Source: Clostridiales bacterium (GTDB lineage: Bacteria > Bacillota > Clostridia > Saccharofermentanales > Saccharofermentanaceae). From it: 64,000 nucleotides of DNA. This document shows, piece by piece, positions 11,010-27,882 of this stretch. Within the stretch, counting starts at the first letter, position 1; every line of letters begins with the position of its first letter. The stretch spans positions 703 through 64,702 of the forward strand of contig JAFRST010000062.1 of the NCBI GenBank assembly GCA_017427465.1, in the 5' to 3' direction. The notes beneath the pieces were generated by a model. That model was not told the origin of the DNA. It saw only the letters and a program-made list of their open reading frames with translations, and did no database searches. The translations under genes and the position numbers were made by a program.

Positions 11010-11290
11010 AATAAAAAATCCCGCGGCAACTTGTCATTGCCACGGGACGAATTCGCAATTATCTGCACCTTCGCGGTACCACCCATGTTCGGAAAACCAT
11101 TATAGCTTTCCGCACTTAAATCGCGCTGTTTTGCCGCGCATCGCATCTGCTTAGTCAGCGTATCAGACGCCGTTTCCGACAGAAGCTCCGGTGTTGAAAT
11201 TCATCCTGATGCCCTTCGGATCGTGCTTTCAGCCCAAGACACGACTCTCTTTCCCGGCAGCAAAAAGACTACTTACGCACCTTCATTGCA
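11010..11290 (-). promoter_or_regulatory. T-box riboswitch (Phe specifier)
   Basis: AGAGA and GCTGAAA stem-I motifs, GAAT-TTC specifier, T-box AACATGGGTGGTACCGCG (~11072-11089), terminator 11013-11048. Confidence 0.92.
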
Positions 11291-11531
11291 GGCTTTATTT
11301 ATAATATGCACCCGGCGAAAAGTCAAGCAAGATAACCGGCCGGATCCTGCCGAATTCCGGCTCCCGTTTGTGTCATCCGCATGCCGGGCGCTTCCGGATT
11401 AGTGAAAATTAGACAAATAATTTACAAAATATCAAAAAGTGTTTATTTATTAGAACGCGTGTAATATTATAACTTTTGGAGTGTTCTCAGCTGGAGGACT
11501 TAAGTATTTTTTTTGATACGCGGGGTTTAAC

Positions 11532-16123: not shown

Positions 16124-16681
16124 TTACTTCTTAATATCAGCTCTCCATGTAGCAGGCTTGAACTCCTGTACGAGCGGGAGGAGACGCTGATCTACGTCGA
16201 TCTTGAAGACGGAGTTAAAGTTGTTTGTCGCGATCATCTGACCTGCGAAGCCTACGATAACTACGAGTTCCTGATCAGTAAAGTGCTTCTTAAGTTCAGC
16301 GAAAAGTTCATCGGATACTGATGTAGGATCCTTAACGATGGACTCTGCAAGTGTAGTAAGAAGTGTTTCCTTCTCATCGTAAACGAGGTTAGCAGGATCT
16401 AAGCCAAGCCCCTTAACGTCGCTGATGAAGAAAAGGGAGCACAACTGGCAGGAGTTAGTTGTGGAGATCTTGTGTGCGTAGAGGATCGCATCCTTCTCAC
16501 CGATTACCTCAACCAATCTGTTCCAGGATGTGTACCATGCCATATAAGCATCGTATGTTGCTGCGTCATTGAGAAGGCCCTTCTTCATGTTCGTAACTGC
16601 GTTTCTGCCTGCAAGCTCGTCGTAACGTACCTTCTCTGCGCCTGTTGCCTCTGACTGTTCTACCAATTTAATTCGTGCCAT
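16124..16681 (-). CDS. Carboxymuconolactone decarboxylase/AhpD-like protein
   Basis: STTNSCQLCS CxxC; VSDELFAELKKHFTDQELV. Confidence 0.75.
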   Translation of the reverse strand: MARIKLVEQSEATGAEKVRYDELAGRNAVTNMKKGLLNDAATYDAYMAWYTSWNRLVEVIGEKDAILYAHKISTTNSCQLCSLFFISDVKGLGLDPANLVYDEKETLLTTLAESIVKDPTSVSDELFAELKKHFTDQELVVIVGFAGQMIATNNFNSVFKIDVDQRLLPLVQEFKPATWRADIKK

Positions 16682-17891: not shown

Positions 17892-18773
17892 TTATCCGAA
17901 AAGGGGAACTACTGCTCCGTCGTAAGTAGCGTTGATGTATGCTGCTACTTCAGGTCCCTGGAGGACTTCAACGAGCTTAGCGATTGCGGGATCGTTTGCC
18001 TTGTCAGCAGATGTGGCGATGATGTTGCCGTATGTCTGAGCTGCAAGACCGTCGTTAGCTTCAACTGCGAGTGCCTGGCTTACGTGGAGGCCGCCCTCGA
18101 TTGCGTAGTTGCCGTTGATGACTGCTACTTCAACGTCAGGAAGTGCTGCAACGAGCTGCTCGGGTGCGAGTTCCTTGAACTGGATGTTCTTGGGGTTGTC
18201 GATGATATCTTCTACGGTAGCTGTGATGCCTGCGCCGTCCTTAAGCTTGATGATGCCTTCCTGCTCAAGAAGAAGGAGTGCTCTTGCTTCGTTTGTTACG
18301 TTATTAGGAACTGCTACGATAGCGCCTTCGGGAAGCTGGCTAAGGTCTGTTGTCTTGCCTGCGTAAACACCGAAGGGTTCATAGTGTACTGCGCCAACGG
18401 ATACGAGGTCGGAATTGTTTTCCTTATTGAACTGGTCAAGGTAAGGAACGTGCTGGAAATAGTTTGCGTCAAGGCTTCCCTCGATTACGCCTGTGTTAGG
18501 TGTGATGGAATCTTCGAGAACTACGATCTCCAATGTGATTCCCTGCTCTGCGAGGATCGGCTTTGCAACTTCGAGGATCTCAGAGTGAGGTGTTACGTTA
18601 GCGCCTACCTTGATCGTTACGTTAGCCTGTACGTCAGCCTGTGCTTCTGTCTGGGTATTGCTGCCTGTGCCTGTATCAGCGGATGTGGGATCTGCCTTTC
18701 CGCACGCTGCGAGAGCGCCGATTAAGCTGAATGTAAGTACTGAAGCGATTGCTTTCTTAAATGTGTTTTTCAT
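17892..18773 (-). CDS. metQ: MetQ/NlpA-family ABC substrate-binding lipoprotein (start MKNTFKK)
   Basis: Lipobox LAAC; DANYFQHVPYL; VPNNVTNEARAL. Confidence 0.9.
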   Translation of the reverse strand: MKNTFKKAIASVLTFSLIGALAACGKADPTSADTGTGSNTQTEAQADVQANVTIKVGANVTPHSEILEVAKPILAEQGITLEIVVLEDSITPNTGVIEGSLDANYFQHVPYLDQFNKENNSDLVSVGAVHYEPFGVYAGKTTDLSQLPEGAIVAVPNNVTNEARALLLLEQEGIIKLKDGAGITATVEDIIDNPKNIQFKELAPEQLVAALPDVEVAVINGNYAIEGGLHVSQALAVEANDGLAAQTYGNIIATSADKANDPAIAKLVEVLQGPEVAAYINATYDGAVVPLFG

Positions 18774-18834
18774 AATATGTTTTCTCCTTTGAATGTGTTT
18801 GGTTTTAAGTTTTGTTTCCTTGTTCAGGGCCAAG

Positions 18835-18869
18835 AAAAATGCCCGAGGGTCAGATTTAACTCCCGGGCA
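18835..18869 (-). terminator. Attenuator terminator upstream of metQ
   Basis: TGCCCGGGAG...CTCGGGCA-TTTTT. Confidence 0.8.
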
Positions 18870-18899
18870 CATGGCATGTCATTTCAGCGCATCAAAGCT

Positions 18900-19022
18900 T
18901 TAACATCGTCTCGCAAGGCGTGAACTTACAGAGCTCATCGCCGTGGCCATCTTGTGTGCCCGGGAGCTAAGCATTCGACAACACATCATGCTGTTTACTG
19001 TGTTAGTGATCGAGTTGTACAT
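18900..19022 (-). CDS. Cys/Met leader peptide, 40 aa: MYNSITNTVNSMMCCRMLSSRAHKMATAMSSVSSRLARRC
   Basis: AAGGAGG RBS; between promoter and terminator; contains CTCCCGGGCAC complementary to the terminator 5' arm; homologous to 25612-25689. Confidence 0.78.
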   Translation of the reverse strand: MYNSITNTVNSMMCCRMLSSRAHKMATAMSSVSSRLARRC

Positions 19023-19053
19023 TTTTCACGCCTCCTTTCGAGTTGATGGTGAA

Positions 19054-19087
19054 AGTATAACGGTACTAACCTACTATGTCAATAGGT
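19054..19087 (-). promoter_or_regulatory. Promoter TTGACA-N17-TATACT overlapped by palindromic Rrf2 operator ACCTATTGACATAGTAGGT
   Basis: Same motif occurs at 25745 and 27400. Confidence 0.85.
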
Positions 19088-19189
19088 AATTTGATATTTT
19101 TTCGAAAATCTTGAAATGCCTGATTTCATTGGGTTTGAGGGTTGTTTAAGGCCTTTTGCAAAGCGAAAATTAAGCAGATCGTCTTCAGA

Positions 19190-19945
19190 TCAGAGCTGCG
19201 AATACTCCATTAAGAGCATATTCATCTGCTTCTCATCGTGAATATAAGTATGCTCGTGGACGGTGCCTTCATAGACGAGTTTTCCGTCCCTATAGACGAG
19301 AAGACGGTTAAGCGGGACTTCCTCCCATGCGCCGTCATCTAACGGCCTGGTAGCGAAGAAGACAGAGCCGTCATTATTCTTGCGGTACAAAGTACCGGCT
19401 TCATTCTTATGAACGTAGAGATCCTCTCCGTCAAATATAAGAAGATTCAGCTTGTTCTTATCAGAAAGCTTTACCGTTACCGAATCCATGATCTTAAAGC
19501 GCTCTGCCTCGTCCCTGATCCCCTTGTTCTGATCAAGGATATAAAGCAGTATCCGCTCGCTGTCCGTAGATCCGCTCTGGATATCCTTATAAGGAAGGAG
19601 TTCATCAGACTCAAATATTGTTCCGTTGTGGGCTAATACCCATTCGCGCCAGTTGGGATCGTGCGCAATGAACGGATGTGTGTTCTTGTGCTCGACGTAG
19701 CCGATGGTGGCCTTGCGGATATGTGCGATGATCCCGCGGCATGAGACGCCGGAAGATAAGAGCTTGACGATCTTCGCGCTTCTGGTCGAATCTACAGGCT
19801 CTTTATCGATGGTGATCCTGCCTGTATCATCCCATGTGGCAATGCCCCAGCCATGCGGGTTATATTCGCCGTGCCTGAAGAACGCTTTAAGCTCACGGGT
19901 AACATCGATTGTCCTGTCGGATGATACTCCGAACATCTCACACAT
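19190..19945 (-). CDS. Class II glutamine amidotransferase family (EgtC/YafJ-like Ntn hydrolase)
   Basis: N-terminal MCE nucleophile; HGWG; AHIRKAT; NTHPF; HNG; TDSE. Confidence 0.88.
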   Translation of the reverse strand: MCEMFGVSSDRTIDVTRELKAFFRHGEYNPHGWGIATWDDTGRITIDKEPVDSTRSAKIVKLLSSGVSCRGIIAHIRKATIGYVEHKNTHPFIAHDPNWREWVLAHNGTIFESDELLPYKDIQSGSTDSERILLYILDQNKGIRDEAERFKIMDSVTVKLSDKNKLNLLIFDGEDLYVHKNEAGTLYRKNNDGSVFFATRPLDDGAWEEVPLNRLLVYRDGKLVYEGTVHEHTYIHDEKQMNMLLMEYSQL

Positions 19946-21158
19946 TATTCAGATACTCCCGTTCTTTTTCATCAAGAGAATTGCCTGCCAGTTCCAGGAG
20001 ATAGTTATACCACTCGCGGGCCGTCCGGTCACCATAGATCTTTGCATCTAATCCGGATACGATTACCGCGCCGACCGCATCCTCGATCTGTTCGATAGAG
20101 TTAATATCTTTAAGTTCAGTCTCCAGAATGGAGAGATTCTCATCCGAATAGATAAGACCTTTTATGAGGGCGACATAGCTAAGCGCGCGTCCGAGAGGAA
20201 CGCTGTCTGCCACTCTGATCTCGATGTATTTCTTGATGCGGAAATGGAAGAATCCCATAGAGATAAAATGCTCTATCAGATGCTTTTTGCGGGATTCCGT
20301 AAGGTCACTGCCGATCGTTCCGTCGTTAATAAGATCCAGGGCTGTAGAATCACCGACATAAGATGTCTCGCCTTCATCGGTAAGAAGGATCAAAGGAGTA
20401 TTGGATATTACGTCAGCGATCTTATCATAACCGAAATCCTCATCGAATGAATGCGGATAAAATCCTGTTCTCGAAGGATCGAGATCGCTCCATTCCTGTA
20501 TCCTCAGAAGGTGTGTCTTATTAGATTCCTTCTCAATGACGGAGTCTTCGTAAGTCTTGTTCTCGAGCGCGATCATGAGGATAGGAGAAATCTTCTGCAG
20601 TACAATGAGTTTGCGCACAAGGTCTTTCTCCGAACTGTAATCGACTGATATCTGGACCGATGAAGATGCCCTCATCATGTACTTGCCGTATTTTCCGCTT
20701 TTACGGAAATAAGCATCCATATACTTATAGCGCTTTTTACGAGACAGCGGGATATCATCAGGATCGATCTGGCCTGACTCAACGATGGGAAGATTGCCCT
20801 TGGTTATGATGTGATATCCGCGGGATTCGAAGATCGGGATCCAAAGCAAAAGGAATTCTTTATAGATGCTCTTGATCTCGTCGATACCGGACTTCGGATC
20901 AATGCTTATCTCAAACTGGCAGGCAGGCTCCAAAGTAACAGAATAACCGGTCGTAACGTAGCCGACCGGATATCCGTCCATGTATATCACTTCCGCAGAA
21001 AGATCTTCTGCTACTTCGCCGATAAGTTTTGTAACTTCATCAAAACCTATCTGTATGCCTTTATCGTTCACGACAAAGTGTTCTATCTCAAGCCCCAGCT
21101 CCTGACCGGACGTCTCGCCTGAACGTATGTAATCTACTATGGCTGAATGTAATGACAT
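19938..21158 (-). CDS. Glutamate--cysteine ligase family protein (GCS2/EgtA-like)
   Basis: LGLEIEHF; VTLEPACQFEIS; MMRASSSVQISVDY; YIEIRVAD. Confidence 0.85.
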   Translation of the reverse strand: MSLHSAIVDYIRSGETSGQELGLEIEHFVVNDKGIQIGFDEVTKLIGEVAEDLSAEVIYMDGYPVGYVTTGYSVTLEPACQFEISIDPKSGIDEIKSIYKEFLLLWIPIFESRGYHIITKGNLPIVESGQIDPDDIPLSRKKRYKYMDAYFRKSGKYGKYMMRASSSVQISVDYSSEKDLVRKLIVLQKISPILMIALENKTYEDSVIEKESNKTHLLRIQEWSDLDPSRTGFYPHSFDEDFGYDKIADVISNTPLILLTDEGETSYVGDSTALDLINDGTIGSDLTESRKKHLIEHFISMGFFHFRIKKYIEIRVADSVPLGRALSYVALIKGLIYSDENLSILETELKDINSIEQIEDAVGAVIVSGLDAKIYGDRTAREWYNYLLELAGNSLDEKEREYLNNV

Positions 21159-21175
21159 ATATTATTTCTCCCTTA

Positions 21176-21739
21176 CTACGAGACTGCCGTCTTCTGCTTG
21201 TTCTTGTGAGCTTCGCCGTTTTGCGAGAGCTGATACCTGTCGAAAAGTTTCACGTACATAAGAGGCACTGCTCCGACTATTGCCGCACTTGCCTGGATGC
21301 CGTTGGGGATCACTGATCCCAAAGCAGCTTCCACACCGTACATAAACGGCAGTGATTCAAATGCAAAATAGCCGGCGATCATGATAAGTTCTGCAACGAA
21401 TGATCCTGATACCTTGCGTACAAGTGAGACCTTTCCCTTAGCGTTTCTCTTAAGAAGTGATCCTGCCACGAATCCCATCAGGCCCTTGATAAGGAATGTT
21501 GCTATAGCATACTGCGGATAGCCTGCCAAAAGATCGGCAAGTGTCGAGCCGATGGCTGCAGGAAGCAGTGCCAGAGGGCCTAAAATATATGAGCTTAACA
21601 GTATCACGAGGTCACCGAGATTTATGTATCCTATCGCGGTCGGGATATGAAGCTCGGTGCCTACAAATACCAGTGCTGCGAGCACTCCTGCGTATGCGAT
21701 CAGCTTTAAGTTGTTTTTGTTTCTATTTCTATTGCTCAT
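21176..21739 (-). CDS. ECF transporter S component
   Basis: AGVLAAL motif, GYINLGD, multiple TM helices. Confidence 0.85.
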   Translation of the reverse strand: MSNRNRNKNNLKLIAYAGVLAALVFVGTELHIPTAIGYINLGDLVILLSSYILGPLALLPAAIGSTLADLLAGYPQYAIATFLIKGLMGFVAGSLLKRNAKGKVSLVRKVSGSFVAELIMIAGYFAFESLPFMYGVEAALGSVIPNGIQASAAIVGAVPLMYVKLFDRYQLSQNGEAHKNKQKTAVS

Positions 21740-21770
21740 ATTTTGATTCTCCTTTATTTGTTACGGATCA

Positions 21771-22433
21771 TTAAGTTTTACGGGTCTTCTTAGACATTCG
21801 GATCCCGATCTCCTGGATCAGCATTACCATTGCGATGAGTAAGGCAACCGTCGTCCAGAGCACTTCTTTCTGATATCGGTAGTAACCGTACTGGAGTGCT
21901 ATGGCTCCGAGTCCGCCGCCGCCGATAACGCCGGCCATCGCAGAATATCCCAATACCGTTGCAACGTTGATCGCACCACCCTGCAAAAGCGAGGGTGTAG
22001 CTTCAGGAATAATGAAGTGGATTATCGTGTACAAAGGTGATGCACCCATTGAAGTTGCCGCTTCGATAATGCCCGGATTTACTTCATTCAGGGACGACTC
22101 TACCATTCGTGCTACGATCGGGATGGCACCGACGGTAAGAGGTACGATCGATGCGGTGGTTCCGATCGAAGAGCCGACTACAAGTCTTGTGAACGGGATC
22201 AGGAGCACCAGCAGGATCAGGAACGGGAGCGAACGCGCCACGTTTACGATGAATCCTATGATGCCGTTGACGATCTTGTTCTCGAGAAGGCGGCCCTTTG
22301 AAGTCGCATAGAGGATCACACCCAGAGGCATGCCTACGATGTATGAGAATAGTGATGCGAACAGCGTCATCTCGAACGTCTCAAAAATACCGCTGAGTAT
22401 CGCTTCTTTCATGTATTCACTCATTTGTTTCAA
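21771..22433 (-). CDS. metI: Methionine ABC transporter permease
   Basis: RSLPFLILL; EAA loop; SAMAGVIGGGGLG. Confidence 0.92.
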   Translation of the reverse strand: MKQMSEYMKEAILSGIFETFEMTLFASLFSYIVGMPLGVILYATSKGRLLENKIVNGIIGFIVNVARSLPFLILLVLLIPFTRLVVGSSIGTTASIVPLTVGAIPIVARMVESSLNEVNPGIIEAATSMGASPLYTIIHFIIPEATPSLLQGGAINVATVLGYSAMAGVIGGGGLGAIALQYGYYRYQKEVLWTTVALLIAMVMLIQEIGIRMSKKTRKT

Positions 22434-23424
22434 CCTCCGTTACGGAAAGTCCGCCCTTAGTAAAGAAACTGATAATAGTCTCTTGATCCTTTTCGGAAGG
22501 CGGGAGCTCAACGATCATCTGGCCGAAACCGATACCGCCGACGCTCTTTGTGTTAGCACTCAGGATATTGACCTTGAGACCGGTCTGTTCCACAAGATTC
22601 GCGATGAAAGGCTCGCTCGATTGCGTGCCGTCAAATACCAGACGGACGACTCTTCTGCCCTGCTCTGAAGGATCAAACGGATTGCTCGGGAAAACGAGCT
22701 TTTTCGCGGCCTTTGACTTAGGGTTTGAGAACACGTCTTTAACGTCTCCTACTTCGGCAAGCAGGCCGTCATCGATTATCGCCACGCGGTCGCAGATCTT
22801 CTCGACGACGCTCATCTCATGCGTAATGATGACTATCGTGAGCTTTCTCTCCTCGTTGATCTCTTTTAACAGATCAAGGATCTCTCCCGTAATCTTCGGA
22901 TCTAATGCGCTTGTTGCTTCGTCGCACAACAGGACTTTTGGGTCTGCAGTGAGTGCTCTTGCTATGGCGACTCTCTGTTTCTGGCCGCCCGAAAGACGTG
23001 CCGGGAAAACATCTTTCTTCTCCGACAGTCCTACTATCTTAAGCATCTGCAGAGCCTTCTCCCTGCGTTCTTTACGGGGGACTCCGGCGATCTTCAAAGG
23101 CTGTTCGACATTAGACAGGACGGTCCTCTGGTTAACAAGGTTAAAGCCCTGGAAGATCATTGAGATCTTTTGTCTTACTTCTCTAAGCTCCTTTGCTGAA
23201 AGCGCTGCAAGGTCCTTATCGTAGAATGTAACGCTGCCTGAAGTTACTTCCTCAAGGCGGTTTAGGGTGCGCACCAGAGTGGATTTGCCTGCACCGCTCA
23301 TGCCGATGATGCCGAAGATCTCGCCTTCGCGCACCTCAAGACTCACGTTCTTTAAGGCCTCGAATTCCTTGCCGTCGTTCTTATATGTTTTGTATACGTT
23401 TGTCAGTTCGAAAACGTTACCCAT
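22417..23424 (-). CDS. metN: Methionine ABC transporter ATP-binding protein with NIL domain
   Basis: GMSGAGKST; LSGGQKQRV; CDEATSALDP. Confidence 0.92.
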   Translation of the reverse strand: MGNVFELTNVYKTYKNDGKEFEALKNVSLEVREGEIFGIIGMSGAGKSTLVRTLNRLEEVTSGSVTFYDKDLAALSAKELREVRQKISMIFQGFNLVNQRTVLSNVEQPLKIAGVPRKERREKALQMLKIVGLSEKKDVFPARLSGGQKQRVAIARALTADPKVLLCDEATSALDPKITGEILDLLKEINEERKLTIVIITHEMSVVEKICDRVAIIDDGLLAEVGDVKDVFSNPKSKAAKKLVFPSNPFDPSEQGRRVVRLVFDGTQSSEPFIANLVEQTGLKVNILSANTKSVGGIGFGQMIVELPPSEKDQETIISFFTKGGLSVTEVETNE

Positions 23425-24338
23425 TAATCGAATAATCCTTTGCTCAAATATCTGTCTCCCCTGTCAGGGAAAACGGTTACTATGTTCCCGCTCTCTATTT
23501 CAGATGCGAGTCTGAGAGAAGCTGCGAGCGCCGCTCCTGATGAAGATCCTGCAAGGATGCCTTCTTCTTTTGCTAACCGCCTGCTCATCTCAAATGCTTC
23601 GTCGTCATTTACCTTAATGACTTTATCTACCAGTGTGATGTCCATCGTATCAGCGATGAAGTCATTGCCTATTCCTTCGATGTTGTAATCGAAATGCTCA
23701 CCGCCTCCGATCGTCGATCCGAAGGGATCTGCGAGTACTCCGGTGATATTAGGGTTTTGTTCCTTTAAGTACTTAACAACGCCCGTGAATGTTCCGCCGC
23801 TGCCTGCGCCTGCTACAAAATAATCGATCTTGCCATCCAACTGTGAATAGATCTCAGGACCGGTTGTCTCATAGTGTGCGAGAGGATTTGCAGGATTCCT
23901 GAACTGTCTTAAGGAAACTGATCCTTCGATCTCCTTTAGGATCTCTTCGGCTTTTCTCTCGGCTCCGAGCATTCCTTCTTCTCTTGATGTATGAATTATC
24001 TCCGCGCCCAAAGCGCGCATCACTTTCTGCTTCTCGATGGAAAATTTCTCAGGGACCGTGAAGATGACTCTAATACCCTGGTTCAGCGCCGCTACGGCGA
24101 TGCCGATACCTGTATTTCCTGCGGTGGCGTCAACGATCGTGCCGCCTTCTTTGAGGATCCCCCTCTTTTTCGCATCGTCGATCATGTAGACACCTACACG
24201 GTCTTTAACGCTTCCTGCGGGATTCATAAGTTCAAGTTTTGCATATACATTTACTCCGGGCTTAACGCCCATATGGTTGATCTTCAAGACCGGTGTATTG
24301 CCGATCATGCTTCTGATATCTTCATATACGTTATTCAT
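23424..24338 (-). CDS. Cysteine synthase family PLP enzyme (O-acetylserine-dependent cystathionine beta-synthase, MccA-like)
   Basis: NPAGSVKDR; TAGNTG; GAGSGGT; IEGIG; adjacent to a cystathionine lyase. Confidence 0.85.
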   Translation of the reverse strand: MNNVYEDIRSMIGNTPVLKINHMGVKPGVNVYAKLELMNPAGSVKDRVGVYMIDDAKKRGILKEGGTIVDATAGNTGIGIAVAALNQGIRVIFTVPEKFSIEKQKVMRALGAEIIHTSREEGMLGAERKAEEILKEIEGSVSLRQFRNPANPLAHYETTGPEIYSQLDGKIDYFVAGAGSGGTFTGVVKYLKEQNPNITGVLADPFGSTIGGGEHFDYNIEGIGNDFIADTMDITLVDKVIKVNDDEAFEMSRRLAKEEGILAGSSSGAALAASLRLASEIESGNIVTVFPDRGDRYLSKGLFD

Positions 24339-24353
24339 AGTTTTTACCTCTTA

Positions 24354-25517
24354 TTACTTTGCTGAATTCTCGATCGCCTGCTTGAGATCTGCGATGAGAT
24401 CATCAACGTCTTCGATGCCTACTGAGAATCTGATGAGTTCATCCACGATCCCGACTTTCTTACGGATGTCAGCGGGGATCGCTGCGTGAGTCATCGTAGC
24501 CGGGTGACATACCAGTGATTCGACGCCGCCTAAGCTCTCTGCCAAAGTAATGAGATTCAAGTTCTCAAAGAACTTCTTATAGTCGTATTTGTCGTTAAGT
24601 ACGAAGGAGATCATTGCACCTGCTCCGTCAGCCTGCTTCTTCTGCACTTCATAGCCGGGATCTGACTCGAGACCGGGGTAGTAGACCTTGCTTACAAAGC
24701 CGCTTCCTACGAGCCATCTTGCGATCTTCTCTGCGTTATCAACGTGTCTGTCCATGCGTACTCCCAAAGTCTTGATGCCTCTGATAATGAGGAAGCTGTC
24801 CCAGGGAGCGAGCACGCCTCCGATGGCATTCTGCAGATAGTAAAGGCGGTCTGCCAGTGCCTTGTCGTTTACCACTACGAATCCGGAAATAGTGTCAGAG
24901 TGGCCGCCCAGATACTTGGTGCCGCTGTGGATAACGATGTCGGCGCCGAGCGTCAAAGGGCGCTGCAGATAAGGTGTGAGGAATGTATTGTCTACGATCG
25001 TAAGCTTGTTGTGCTTTTTCGCGATCTTGGAAACTGCTTCGATATCAGTGATTGTAAGAAGCGGGTTTGCGGGAGTCTCGATGTAGATAGCCTTTACGTC
25101 GTCATCGATAGCGTTCTCAACTGCTTCAAGATCTGAAGTATTTACGATCTTGTATGTGATATTGAAGTTCTTGAATACGTTATCAAGGATGCGGAATGTT
25201 CCGCCATAGATGTTGTCTGATACAACGAGTTTGTCACCGCTCTTAAAGAGTGAGAGCACCGTGTTGATCGCTGCAAGTCCTGATGCGAACGCAAGGCCGT
25301 GTCTGCCATGCTCCAGGTCTGCAATGAGTTCCTCAAGAGCCGCCCTCGTCGGGTTGCCTGTTCTTGAGTATTCCCATCCTCTGTTCTTGCCAAGTCCGTC
25401 CTGCTTATATGTGGATGTCTGGTAGACCGGCACGTTTACTGCGCCTGTTATCTCATCTCCGTCGATGCCGCCGTGAATAAGTAATGAATTGATTTTGATG
25501 TTATGTGCGTTGGTCAT
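24354..25517 (-). CDS. Cys/Met metabolism PLP enzyme (cystathionine gamma-lyase, MccB-like)
   Basis: YSRTGNPTR; HSGTKYLGGHSD; AESLGGVESL. Confidence 0.88.
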   Translation of the reverse strand: MTNAHNIKINSLLIHGGIDGDEITGAVNVPVYQTSTYKQDGLGKNRGWEYSRTGNPTRAALEELIADLEHGRHGLAFASGLAAINTVLSLFKSGDKLVVSDNIYGGTFRILDNVFKNFNITYKIVNTSDLEAVENAIDDDVKAIYIETPANPLLTITDIEAVSKIAKKHNKLTIVDNTFLTPYLQRPLTLGADIVIHSGTKYLGGHSDTISGFVVVNDKALADRLYYLQNAIGGVLAPWDSFLIIRGIKTLGVRMDRHVDNAEKIARWLVGSGFVSKVYYPGLESDPGYEVQKKQADGAGAMISFVLNDKYDYKKFFENLNLITLAESLGGVESLVCHPATMTHAAIPADIRKKVGIVDELIRFSVGIEDVDDLIADLKQAIENSAK

Positions 25518-25546
25518 TTTGTTTTTCCTCTCGATCAGTTTTTACG

Positions 25547-25581
25547 AAAAATGCCCGGCGCTTTAATAGAGCTCCGGGCAT
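25547..25581 (-). terminator. Attenuator terminator upstream of the transsulfuration operon
   Basis: ATGCCCGGAGC...GCGCCGGGCAT-TTTT. Confidence 0.8.
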
Positions 25582-25611
25582 CTTAGAACAATTTCAGTCA
25601 GGATGATTCTT

Positions 25612-25689
25612 TCAACATCGAATCAAGTTAAGACAGCAATAGTCCATTGCCCGTGCGTTTGACATTCGACAACAACACATGAACTTCAT
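25612..25689 (-). CDS. Cys-rich leader peptide, 25 aa: MKFMCCCRMSNARAMDYCCLNLIRC
   Basis: AAGGAG RBS; 6 Cys and 4 Met; between promoter and terminator. Confidence 0.82.
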   Translation of the reverse strand: MKFMCCCRMSNARAMDYCCLNLIRC

Positions 25690-25730
25690 ATTGACTGTCT
25701 CCTTCCGTTATTTTCGTATGATGGGTGTGA

Positions 25731-25763
25731 TTATATTCCCATTTACCTACTGTGTCAATAGGT
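25731..25763 (-). promoter_or_regulatory. Promoter TTGACA-N17-TATAAT overlapped by Rrf2 operator ACCTATTGACACAGTAGGT
   Basis: Perfect consensus promoter; motif shared three times. Confidence 0.88.
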
Positions 25764-27385: not shown

Positions 27386-27418
27386 TCTTAAAACCTATTT
27401 CCTACTATGTCAATAGGA
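27386..27418 (-). promoter_or_regulatory. Promoter TTGACA-N17-TAAGAT overlapped by Rrf2 operator TCCTATTGACATAGTAGGA, between nifS and the regulator gene
   Basis: Third copy of the motif, in the divergent intergenic region. Confidence 0.85.
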
Positions 27419-27486
27419 ATTTGTTATTGATTTACCTATTCGCCTATGCGTATAATGGGTAAATCATCGAAAAGGGGTAATGCGAC

Positions 27487-27882
27487 ATGATCTCAACTAA
27501 AGGAAGATACGGTTTGCGCGTAATGATAGATCTGGCACAAAACGACAACGGCAGCTATATTCCTCTGAAGGATATTGCCGAGCGTCAGGAAATCTCCAAG
27601 AAATATCTTGAAATCATAGTCAAGCAGATGGTCGAAGGGGGCCTTATCAAGGGCTTAAGCGGCAAAGGCGGCGGCTACAGGCTCGTCAAAAAACCGGAGA
27701 AATATACCGTCGGTGAGATCCTTACACTTATGGAAGGCACCATCTCATCCGTAGCATGCCTCGCTGAAAAGGACTATAACTGTCCCAGACGCAAAAAGTG
27801 CGACACTCTTCCCATGTGGAAAGAGTTCGACAGCATAGTTCACGATTATCTGTACGGAAAGAAACTGAGCGACCTGCTCTGA
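27487..27882 (+). CDS. Rrf2-family regulator, IscR-like with three Cys
   Basis: MISTKGRYGLR; GGGYRL; C-x7-C-x5-C. Confidence 0.92.
   Translation: MISTKGRYGLRVMIDLAQNDNGSYIPLKDIAERQEISKKYLEIIVKQMVEGGLIKGLSGKGGGYRLVKKPEKYTVGEILTLMEGTISSVACLAEKDYNCPRRKKCDTLPMWKEFDSIVHDYLYGKKLSDLL

Follow-up and report, generated by a model that had tools for sequence, protein, structure and literature searches.

Transcription attenuation by leader peptides is classically represented by the trpL, hisL and thrL leaders. In Bacillota, the textbook view assigns the methionine and cysteine genes to S-adenosylmethionine (SAM) riboswitches and T-boxes, and attenuation under ribosome control is regarded as handicapped wherever the RNA polymerase outruns the ribosome. 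Amino-acid leaders have been described in this phylum for histidine in bacilli (PMC2965389) and, as a leucine-rich attenuator, for the ilv-leu operon of Staphylococcus aureus (PMC5794164). The ubiG-mccBA operon of Clostridium acetobutylicum is under the control of a Cys T-box and an S-box (PMC2566862), the polycysteine leaderless small open reading frames (sORFs) of mycobacteria act on translation (bioRxiv 10.1101/834739; PMC1262725), and a uORF (upstream open reading frame) before fthC of Streptococcus is proposed to sense methionine indirectly through initiation (PMC11109978). The closest precedent is uORFC-8-2, a uORF with a Cys-Cys pair and a terminator located before cysS in Rhodobacterales (PMC8632094). 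Here we describe a 64,000-nucleotide (nt) stretch of DNA from a Clostridiales bacterium (contig JAFRST010000062.1), hereafter the window, in which two short leader ORFs, one preceding an operon headed by an mccB-like gene and the other a metQ-family gene, probably function as ribosome-controlled transcription attenuators sensing Cys- and Met-tRNA, as judged from sequence and folding models.

Coordinates are positions within the window, and the leader elements and their operons are all on the minus strand. Leader ORF 1 (25612..25689, 25 amino acids) is preceded by a sigma-70-type promoter, TTGACA-17-TATAAT (25730..25758, 12/12 matches), and by the ribosome-binding site AAGGAG (25699..25704), and is followed by an intrinsic terminator hairpin with a U run (25547..25584, –21.5 kcal/mol by folding) located 5′ of the mccB-like gene. 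Leader ORF 2 (18900..19022, 40 amino acids) has the same layout, with a TTGACA-17-TATACT promoter (19054..19082, 11/12 matches), the ribosome-binding site AGGAGG (19031..19036) and a terminator hairpin with a U run 5′ of metQ (18832..18870, –18.7 kcal/mol). The two promoters are the two best of the 11 sites scored between 16000 and 28000, and the ORFs, each led by a Shine-Dalgarno (SD) sequence, start about 30–40 nt past the promoter. A simple terminator scan called neither terminator, and folding gave both as GC-rich hairpins with U runs. This arrangement is the one read in the original prediction, whose translations are exact. Also as predicted, both ORFs carry TGT TGT CGA ATG, then CGG GCA three codons on, and close with CGA TGT and a stop codon: in leader 1 the Cys codons are at 25677-25669, CGA-ATG at 25668-25663 and the terminal CGA-TGT-TGA at 25620-25612, and in leader 2 TGT TGT is at 18983-18978, CGA-ATG at 18977-18972 and CGA-TGT-TAA at 18908-18900. 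Pairing of the CGGGCA segment with the 5′ arm of the terminator as an alternative fold is backed by folding and by compensatory changes; the extent proposed for metQ, 11 base pairs (bp), gives way to 15 bp plus 4 bp. The 5′ strand of the metQ antiterminator (18955..18969) forms 15 bp with the terminator arm, lengthened by a TGGC:GCCA helix, in a duplex of –34.3 kcal/mol that is supported by covariation. The corresponding strand of leader 1 (25648..25656) pairs weakly, with about 6 bp and short helices (–16.6 kcal/mol). Finally, attenuation by the leader had been predicted to be translational; the attenuation is retained, but the structure is that of a ribosome-controlled transcription terminator.

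The leader family is real and conserved. The pattern TGYTGYCGNATG-N9-CGNGC occurs only at the two window leaders in the 2.59-Mb genome, is found in 20 of 36 genomes of the same genus, and in reversed form, used as a control, has no match in any of the 61 genomes searched. By eye, 27 of 30 loci with the pattern are leaders and 3 were discarded as chance. A search of Clostridia for such leaders with covarying terminators had been suggested, and the search for the pattern brought out a large family with compensatory changes in the antiterminator. A GTDB scan gave at least 121 stretches, and among the matches listed (80 titled records) are Lachnospiraceae (Butyrivibrio proteoclasticus), Ruminococcus, Saccharofermentans, Oscillospiraceae, Christensenellaceae, Anaerovibrio and one Aeromonadales assembly, mostly of rumen or gut origin, with GC-rich taxa adding chance matches. 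In an even draw of 401 Clostridia, searched with 3 mismatches allowed, only one of the 21 inspected loci outside the genus is a true leader and the rest are mostly chance; the family is therefore wide in range but patchy across Clostridia. During the collection of candidates, 38 of 168 were removed in one filtering round, some of them true leaders, and 8 of 160 were removed for having less than 8 bp or a short spacing, including the window mccB leader and L121, which left a nonredundant set of 152. By a motif-based sort, the downstream gene is metY in 71 of these and a lipoprotein binding protein in 35; the remaining genes encode MccB, CysK, other pyridoxal phosphate (PLP) enzymes, ABC permeases, a symporter and JAB proteins, 8 are unclassed and 17 leaders have no gene in the locus. 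Most downstream genes are enzymes and transporters of cysteine and methionine, and none of those classified is cysS. Pfam models matched 21 of 25 representative downstream genes (Cys/Met PLP, PALP, NlpA, SBP_bac_3, ABC permease, SDF, JAB), the other four having no match. In the Aeromonadales record (L082), a leader stands together with metY and an Rrf2 gene, which suggests horizontal transfer or a binning error; the leader of L155 is similar to it.

Several observations make translation of the leaders likely. A start was called in 142 of the 152 leaders (10 have no call); the SD-led ATG shares the reading frame of the core in 136 of them and is out of frame in 6, and frame 0 is free of stops across the core in 147 of 152 leaders, versus 45 and 56 for the other two frames. 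Codon 13 or 14 encodes the first Cys of the core in 97/136 leaders, and the stop codon lies at a median of 30 nt 5′ of the terminator. The first scans fixed the codons themselves, and a metagenome scan was therefore anchored on the two antiterminator strands only, with the codons left free (at least 119 stretches). Among the matches listed, 126 strand-hits were filtered for a terminator and an SD sequence, matches with less than 80 nt upstream being left out. The filter was passed by 73, and all 73 (39/39 nonredundant) carry CGA ATG, placed exactly 6 nt before the antiterminator strand in every case; the two codons preceding it encode Cys in 30/39 and 33/39, the alternatives being Met, Trp, Ser, Gln, Arg and Gly. 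Among the 53 failures, 14 have CGAATG and 39 lack it, and in none does another Arg codon precede the ATG. CGA is the only degenerate codon without variation in these 39 leaders. As read from the sequences, then, the invariant unit is CGA-AUG and not the Cys pair; the special status that the original prediction gave to CGA holds, while Cys as a fixed element does not.

This genome uses CGA less than any other codon (2.3% of Arg codons); in the leaders themselves it makes up 9 of the 112 N-terminal Arg codons, while CGA-TGT accounts for 69 of the 77 Arg-Cys pairs further downstream. In the core, TGT is favoured among Cys codons (236/263). Two near-complete carrier genomes have Arg tRNAs with the anticodons ACG, CCG, UCU and CCU, and tRNA-Arg(UCG) was not found in either; CGA would therefore be read by inosine:adenosine (I:A) wobble, a decoding reported to be inefficient (PMC6103715). 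Genes for tRNA-Leu(AAG) and tRNA-Pro(AGG) with A34 are also seen in these Clostridia (L320, L336, L365).

At the RNA level, the 5′ arm of the terminator pairs with a strand that starts 17 nt into the core, in an antiterminator that is lengthened by a second helix, AUGGC:GCCAU. The 30 top covarying pairs include the antiterminator pairs 26:109 (ranked first), 34:106, 36:104 and 19:116, with both sides changed; 26:109 is partly circular, since members were filtered on the first helix but not on the second, and 34:106 and 36:104 are free of this. When the 152-sequence MAFFT alignment was folded to a consensus, the antiterminator alone was recovered, the variable loop of the terminator being poorly aligned. 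In 90 sampled leaders, the ribosome was modelled as a blocked footprint on transcripts ending at the 5′ arm. Without a ribosome the antiterminator forms in 86/90, and with the A site anywhere from the first Cys codon to one codon past the AUG it forms in 90/90; with the A site two codons past the AUG the count drops to 20/90, and at three codons to 0/90. Both window leaders follow this pattern, with the antiterminator present by default and lost once the ribosome is further than one codon past the AUG. Apart from the OFF state with the ribosome at the stop codon, the testable features that define a leader-peptide attenuator thus appear to be in place, as far as sequence and models go: an SD-led ORF with a conserved frame, Met and Cys control codons, an intrinsic terminator opposed by an antiterminator, and an antiterminator that is left free with the ribosome on the control codons.

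According to the mechanism that we propose, a shortage of Cys- or Met-tRNA would hold the ribosome on the Cys codons or on CGA-AUG. A ribosome stalled there would leave the antiterminator strand free to pair as the 5′ arm emerges, and transcription would proceed into the sulfur genes. In conditions of plenty, the ribosome would cross the antiterminator strand and the loop while the RNA polymerase makes the terminator, so that the local hairpin would win. The tRNA-Arg(ICG), as the presumed sole reader of CGA through slow I:A wobble, may sharpen the pause at the following Met codon when it occupies the P site. Since the antiterminator is the default fold, the leaders are predicted to be ON without a ribosome, which would suit a methionine sensor because Met shortage also hinders initiation on the leader and would thereby give read-through. 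The conserved lengths may time the race between ribosome and polymerase; the N-terminal length shows no correlation with the distance from core to terminator (rho 0.11, p 0.20).

Several results weigh against this interpretation. Placing the ribosome on the stop codon lets the antiterminator re-form in 81/90 leaders, and the OFF state therefore needs a kinetic or steric argument. When full-length transcripts were folded (132 leaders, 20 of the 152 not being foldable), the antiterminator beat the terminator under a stalled ribosome in only 71–75/132; with the ribosome at the stop codon the terminator wins in 82/132, and the window mccB leader folds as terminator in every equilibrium condition. 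Depending on the footprint assumed, the switch point shifts by one or two codons. Downstream of CGAAUG, 68/152 leaders (and 25/53 metagenome members) have a GU-tolerant complement to it, and pairing therefore explains part of the CGAAUG conservation. One leader (L230) has neither Cys nor Met just before CGA-AUG, and the Cys/Met content of the leaders shows no clear link to the class of gene, Met or Cys, that they precede. The pause motif TTNTTT is present in only 13/152 leaders, with no conserved NusG pause motif, and the RNA polymerase of Bacillus subtilis outpaces the ribosome (PMC9226507).

As for known riboswitches, the original prediction had seen neither a T-box nor a SAM riboswitch at the leaders, and covariance models agree. 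The Rfam scan of the window returned no family at its gathering score, that of 8 leader loci no family at E ≤ 1, and neither the T-box (RF00230) nor the SAM-I (RF00162) model, nor any other Rfam family, matched at the leaders; the 40 metY loci scanned, of the 59 described below, are likewise without SAM or T-box match. On this genome, the T-box model gave 5 matches elsewhere than at the leaders, one of them over the cut-off, and the SAM-I model 3 matches away from them, and both models are thus able to find sites in this DNA. A known riboswitch at the leaders was therefore rejected. In the window, a T-box match of 78.8 bits, under the Rfam cut-off, lies 5′ of a pheS-like gene (11040-11295, minus strand), whose ORF, called from 11146, probably has its true start further downstream.

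A scan for the promoter palindrome described below led to the metY gene of this genome, outside the window, whose leader (contig C56, ~102950-102820, minus strand) also has an in-frame CGA-ATG. It contains R-x-N-F-R-x-G-R-M, with CGA-ATG followed by Cys codons, has no terminator, and, by prediction, pairs with the ribosome-binding site of metY, for which the predicted unpaired probability rises from 0.23 without a ribosome to 0.58 with a ribosome on the AUG. An independent set of 59 metY loci was gathered by protein similarity alone (genome G154 was left unscored). CGAATG is present within 330 nt upstream in 39/59 of these loci, and of its 42 occurrences, 39 share the frame of a short SD-led ORF, as do 2 more by eye; its reverse complement occurs twice. 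In 19 nonredundant metY leaders, the Arg codon before Met is CGA in 19/20 cases, versus 10/45 at the other Arg codons; in the long ORFs of this genome, CGA precedes Met in 23/565. The R-x-N-[YFW]-R-x-G-R-M type of leader recurs in 22/59 metY loci, and in these, many of them close kin, the last Arg is encoded by CGA in 22/22, the first in none and the second in 3. By sequence, this points to selection on the CGA-AUG pair as it is read by the ribosome. It is possible, although we would stop short of calling it probable, that CGA-AUG is a dedicated methionine-sensing codon pair, in which a wobble-read CGA in the P site would stall the ribosome at the following AUG under low Met-tRNA, and on which three or more unrelated leader types of gut Clostridia are built in place of SAM riboswitches and T-boxes: the terminator type, the R-x-N-[YFW]-R-x-G-R-M type, and a long, Cys/Met-rich type ending in RM-stop. 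Long metY leaders rich in Cys and Met, with a common F-S-C and an end in or near CGA-ATG-stop, are seen at L393, L394 and L402-L406 as a further leader type, and in the metY leader of L399 the segment N-F-R-C-G-R-M-C-C-S-C-S-N is tandemly duplicated with the frame kept.

Four other explanations were considered. CGAAUG might be read as RNA by a metabolite, that is by a new riboswitch, or by an RNA-binding regulator, with leader translation being secondary. The absence of any synonymous change at CGA (39/39), the preference of the core for TGT, the recurrence of a CGAUG repeat close to the stop and the presence, in 68/152 leaders, of a GCGUUCGAC-like stretch further downstream with which the CGAAUG segment can pair would all fit. 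An RNA-level site is unlikely, however, given that CGAATG is in frame in 39/42 occurrences, and two more by eye, across unrelated leader types whose flanking RNA is wholly different, that the proposed pairing partner is variable or missing while CGA never changes, and that no Rfam family matches. RNA pairing as the sole cause of CGA conservation was rejected as insufficient, the complement being found in only 68/152 leaders and 25/53 metagenome members.

The nascent peptide could arrest the ribosome in a ligand-dependent manner, as reportedly occurs with TnaC and SpeFL, codon identity then being only of help. The position of the first core Cys, at codon 13 or 14 in 97/136 leaders, would be compatible with such an arrest, as would the related metY type, in which R-x-N-[YFW]-R-x-G-R-M is a motif at the amino-acid level with synonymous variation. 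We consider it rather improbable, because the tunnel-filling residues before the core are not conserved and some leaders have only 4–5 of them, and because the geometry makes a stall the ON state, so that arrest would need the absence of the ligand.

In a third proposal, the leaders would respond to how tRNA-Arg(ICG) is modified, for example with the sulfur-dependent s2C32 or the SAM-dependent m2A37, which would alter the speed at which CGA is read, charging mattering less. CGA is indeed the only degenerate codon that never varies, both marks are reported to affect its reading (PMC6103715), and mnmA and iscS/iscU adjoin the window leaders. The sign, however, is wrong: both marks are reported there to hinder CGA reading, so that the ribosome would stall, and the genes go ON, when sulfur is abundant. 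Moreover, a search of 5 genomes found a TtcA-like gene in 3 of them, and none in G005 (99% complete, with two leaders) or in this genome (G000, 85% complete), and the Cys and Met codons are left unexplained. Overall, tRNA modification is very unlikely to be the signal, and s2C32 sensing in particular was rejected for its wrong sign and the patchy TtcA-like gene.

Both leader promoters have a palindrome resembling an operator over their –35 box, which the original prediction missed. At the promoter of the mccB operon it reads ACCTA-N9-TAGGT (25745..25763) and is probably an Rrf2-family site; its counterpart at the metQ promoter is at 19069..19087. A third operator-like palindrome (27399..27419) lies between divergent iscS and Rrf2 genes, the latter (27487..27882, plus strand) encoding a CymR/IscR-like regulator with three C-terminal Cys, which scores under the CymR and IscR cut-offs and is a candidate for binding the operator. 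The palindrome, as CCTATTGAC-N4-TAGG, overlaps the –35 box in 112/152 leaders, 40/152 having no operator match, and it also lies before cysE, metE and metY of this genome (gene names read from translations); copies are at C20 25374, C52 15002, C56 103026 and C24 2438. Rrf2 homologues are co-located at 38/300 loci with short flanks. Control of cysteine genes by an Rrf2-family CymR/IscR regulator has been proposed for C. acetobutylicum (PMC3828012). From these sequence features, an Rrf2 repressor probably adds a second layer of control, at initiation, through the operator. It is extremely unlikely that this operator is the only control, with the terminator as a fixed dampener and the ORFs incidental or encoding small Cys-rich peptides, since the compensatory changes in the antiterminator, the fixed spacing and the codon invariance would then have no role and 40 leaders lack an operator match, even though the operator is present at 112/152 leaders, stands also before cysE, metE and iscS without a terminator-type leader, and the terminator is the equilibrium fold of the mccB leader under all conditions. 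Following the C24 copy of the palindrome is a short transcript that has a strong terminator but no ORF, which may reflect a small RNA or an antisense promoter. On C20, the promoter is separated from the cysE-like gene by a terminator-like hairpin with a U run (~25310-25270, minus strand), and no leader ORF was found there.

Leader 1 is followed by seven genes. The first encodes a MccB-like member of the cystathionine gamma-lyase/synthase family (24354..25517; best model PRK07671, under its curated cut-off) and the second a CysK/MccA-like protein of the cysteine synthase family (23424..24338, above the cysKM subfamily cut-off). The metN-like and metI genes of a methionine ABC transporter come next (21771..23424), and then genes for a TIGR04002-like membrane protein, a glutamate-cysteine ligase-like protein and an EgtC-like amidotransferase (19190..21739, all under curated cut-offs), the last two of which (19190-21158) end the operon. 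Leader 2 heads a gene for a MetQ/NlpA-family lipoprotein (17892..18773, under the curated cut-off). All of these are on the minus strand, as is a gene at 16124-16681, located after metQ and an iron alcohol dehydrogenase, whose product of 185 amino acids has no Pfam or NCBIfam match.

The suggestion that the leaders form a distinct, possibly undescribed family agrees with the literature searched, in which no description of the family or of CGA-AUG sensing was found, although subscription journals could hold the motif. It was not found in the main text of the motif surveys PMC6429828, PMC5737381, PMC11109978 and PMC8040213, as far as these texts were available, with supplements covered only for PMC8040213 and in part, and the same search returned no published Met-codon attenuator. 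If gut and rumen Clostridia do have so large a family of Cys/Met leader attenuators, the picture of sulfur amino-acid control outlined above would change for these abundant commensals, and CGA-AUG poses the question of whether one wobble-read codon can tune the ribosome into a methionine sensor. In practice, the motif flags sulfur amino-acid genes and transporters for annotation.

Among known systems, uORFC-8-2 is alike in the tandem Cys codons at about positions 14–15 of the uORF, in the intrinsic terminator and in the proposed read-through on Cys-tRNA shortage. It is set apart, by its description, in that it belongs to Alphaproteobacteria, precedes cysS only and is dominated by UGC, versus UGU here, and that the available text mentions neither a Met codon nor CGA-AUG (PMC8632094). 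The mycobacterial polycysteine sORFs share the control of several sulfur operons by ribosomes stalled on Cys codons; they are leaderless, free a ribosome-binding site and, as described in the available text, have no conserved terminator, whereas the clostridial leaders are SD-led and have intrinsic terminators (bioRxiv 10.1101/834739; PMC1262725). The ubiG-mccBA operon has the same kind of target genes (mccB, mccA-like), the same antitermination logic and a clostridial host, but its sensor is an RNA that binds tRNA or SAM (PMC2566862), and the leaders described here have no T-box or SAM match. The vmlR leader of B. subtilis is similar as a case of uORF-controlled antitermination where the polymerase outpaces the ribosome; it senses antibiotics, through an anti-antiterminator and a NusG pause (PMC9226507), and TTNTTT is found in only the 13 clostridial leaders mentioned above.

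With the classical attenuators, the clostridial leaders have in common a uORF containing codons for the product of the pathway, an antiterminator that competes with an intrinsic terminator, and read-through upon stalling. They differ in that they would sense Cys and Met and that their sensor includes a rare codon that never varies and specifies an unrelated amino acid. The stop codon is about 27 codons past the sensing codons, and not on the antiterminator strand, and a counterpart of the classical 1:2 protector helix may be seen in the complement present in 68/152 leaders. In addition, the clostridial leaders are predicted to be ON without a ribosome, so that a start-codon mutant should read through and not super-attenuate.

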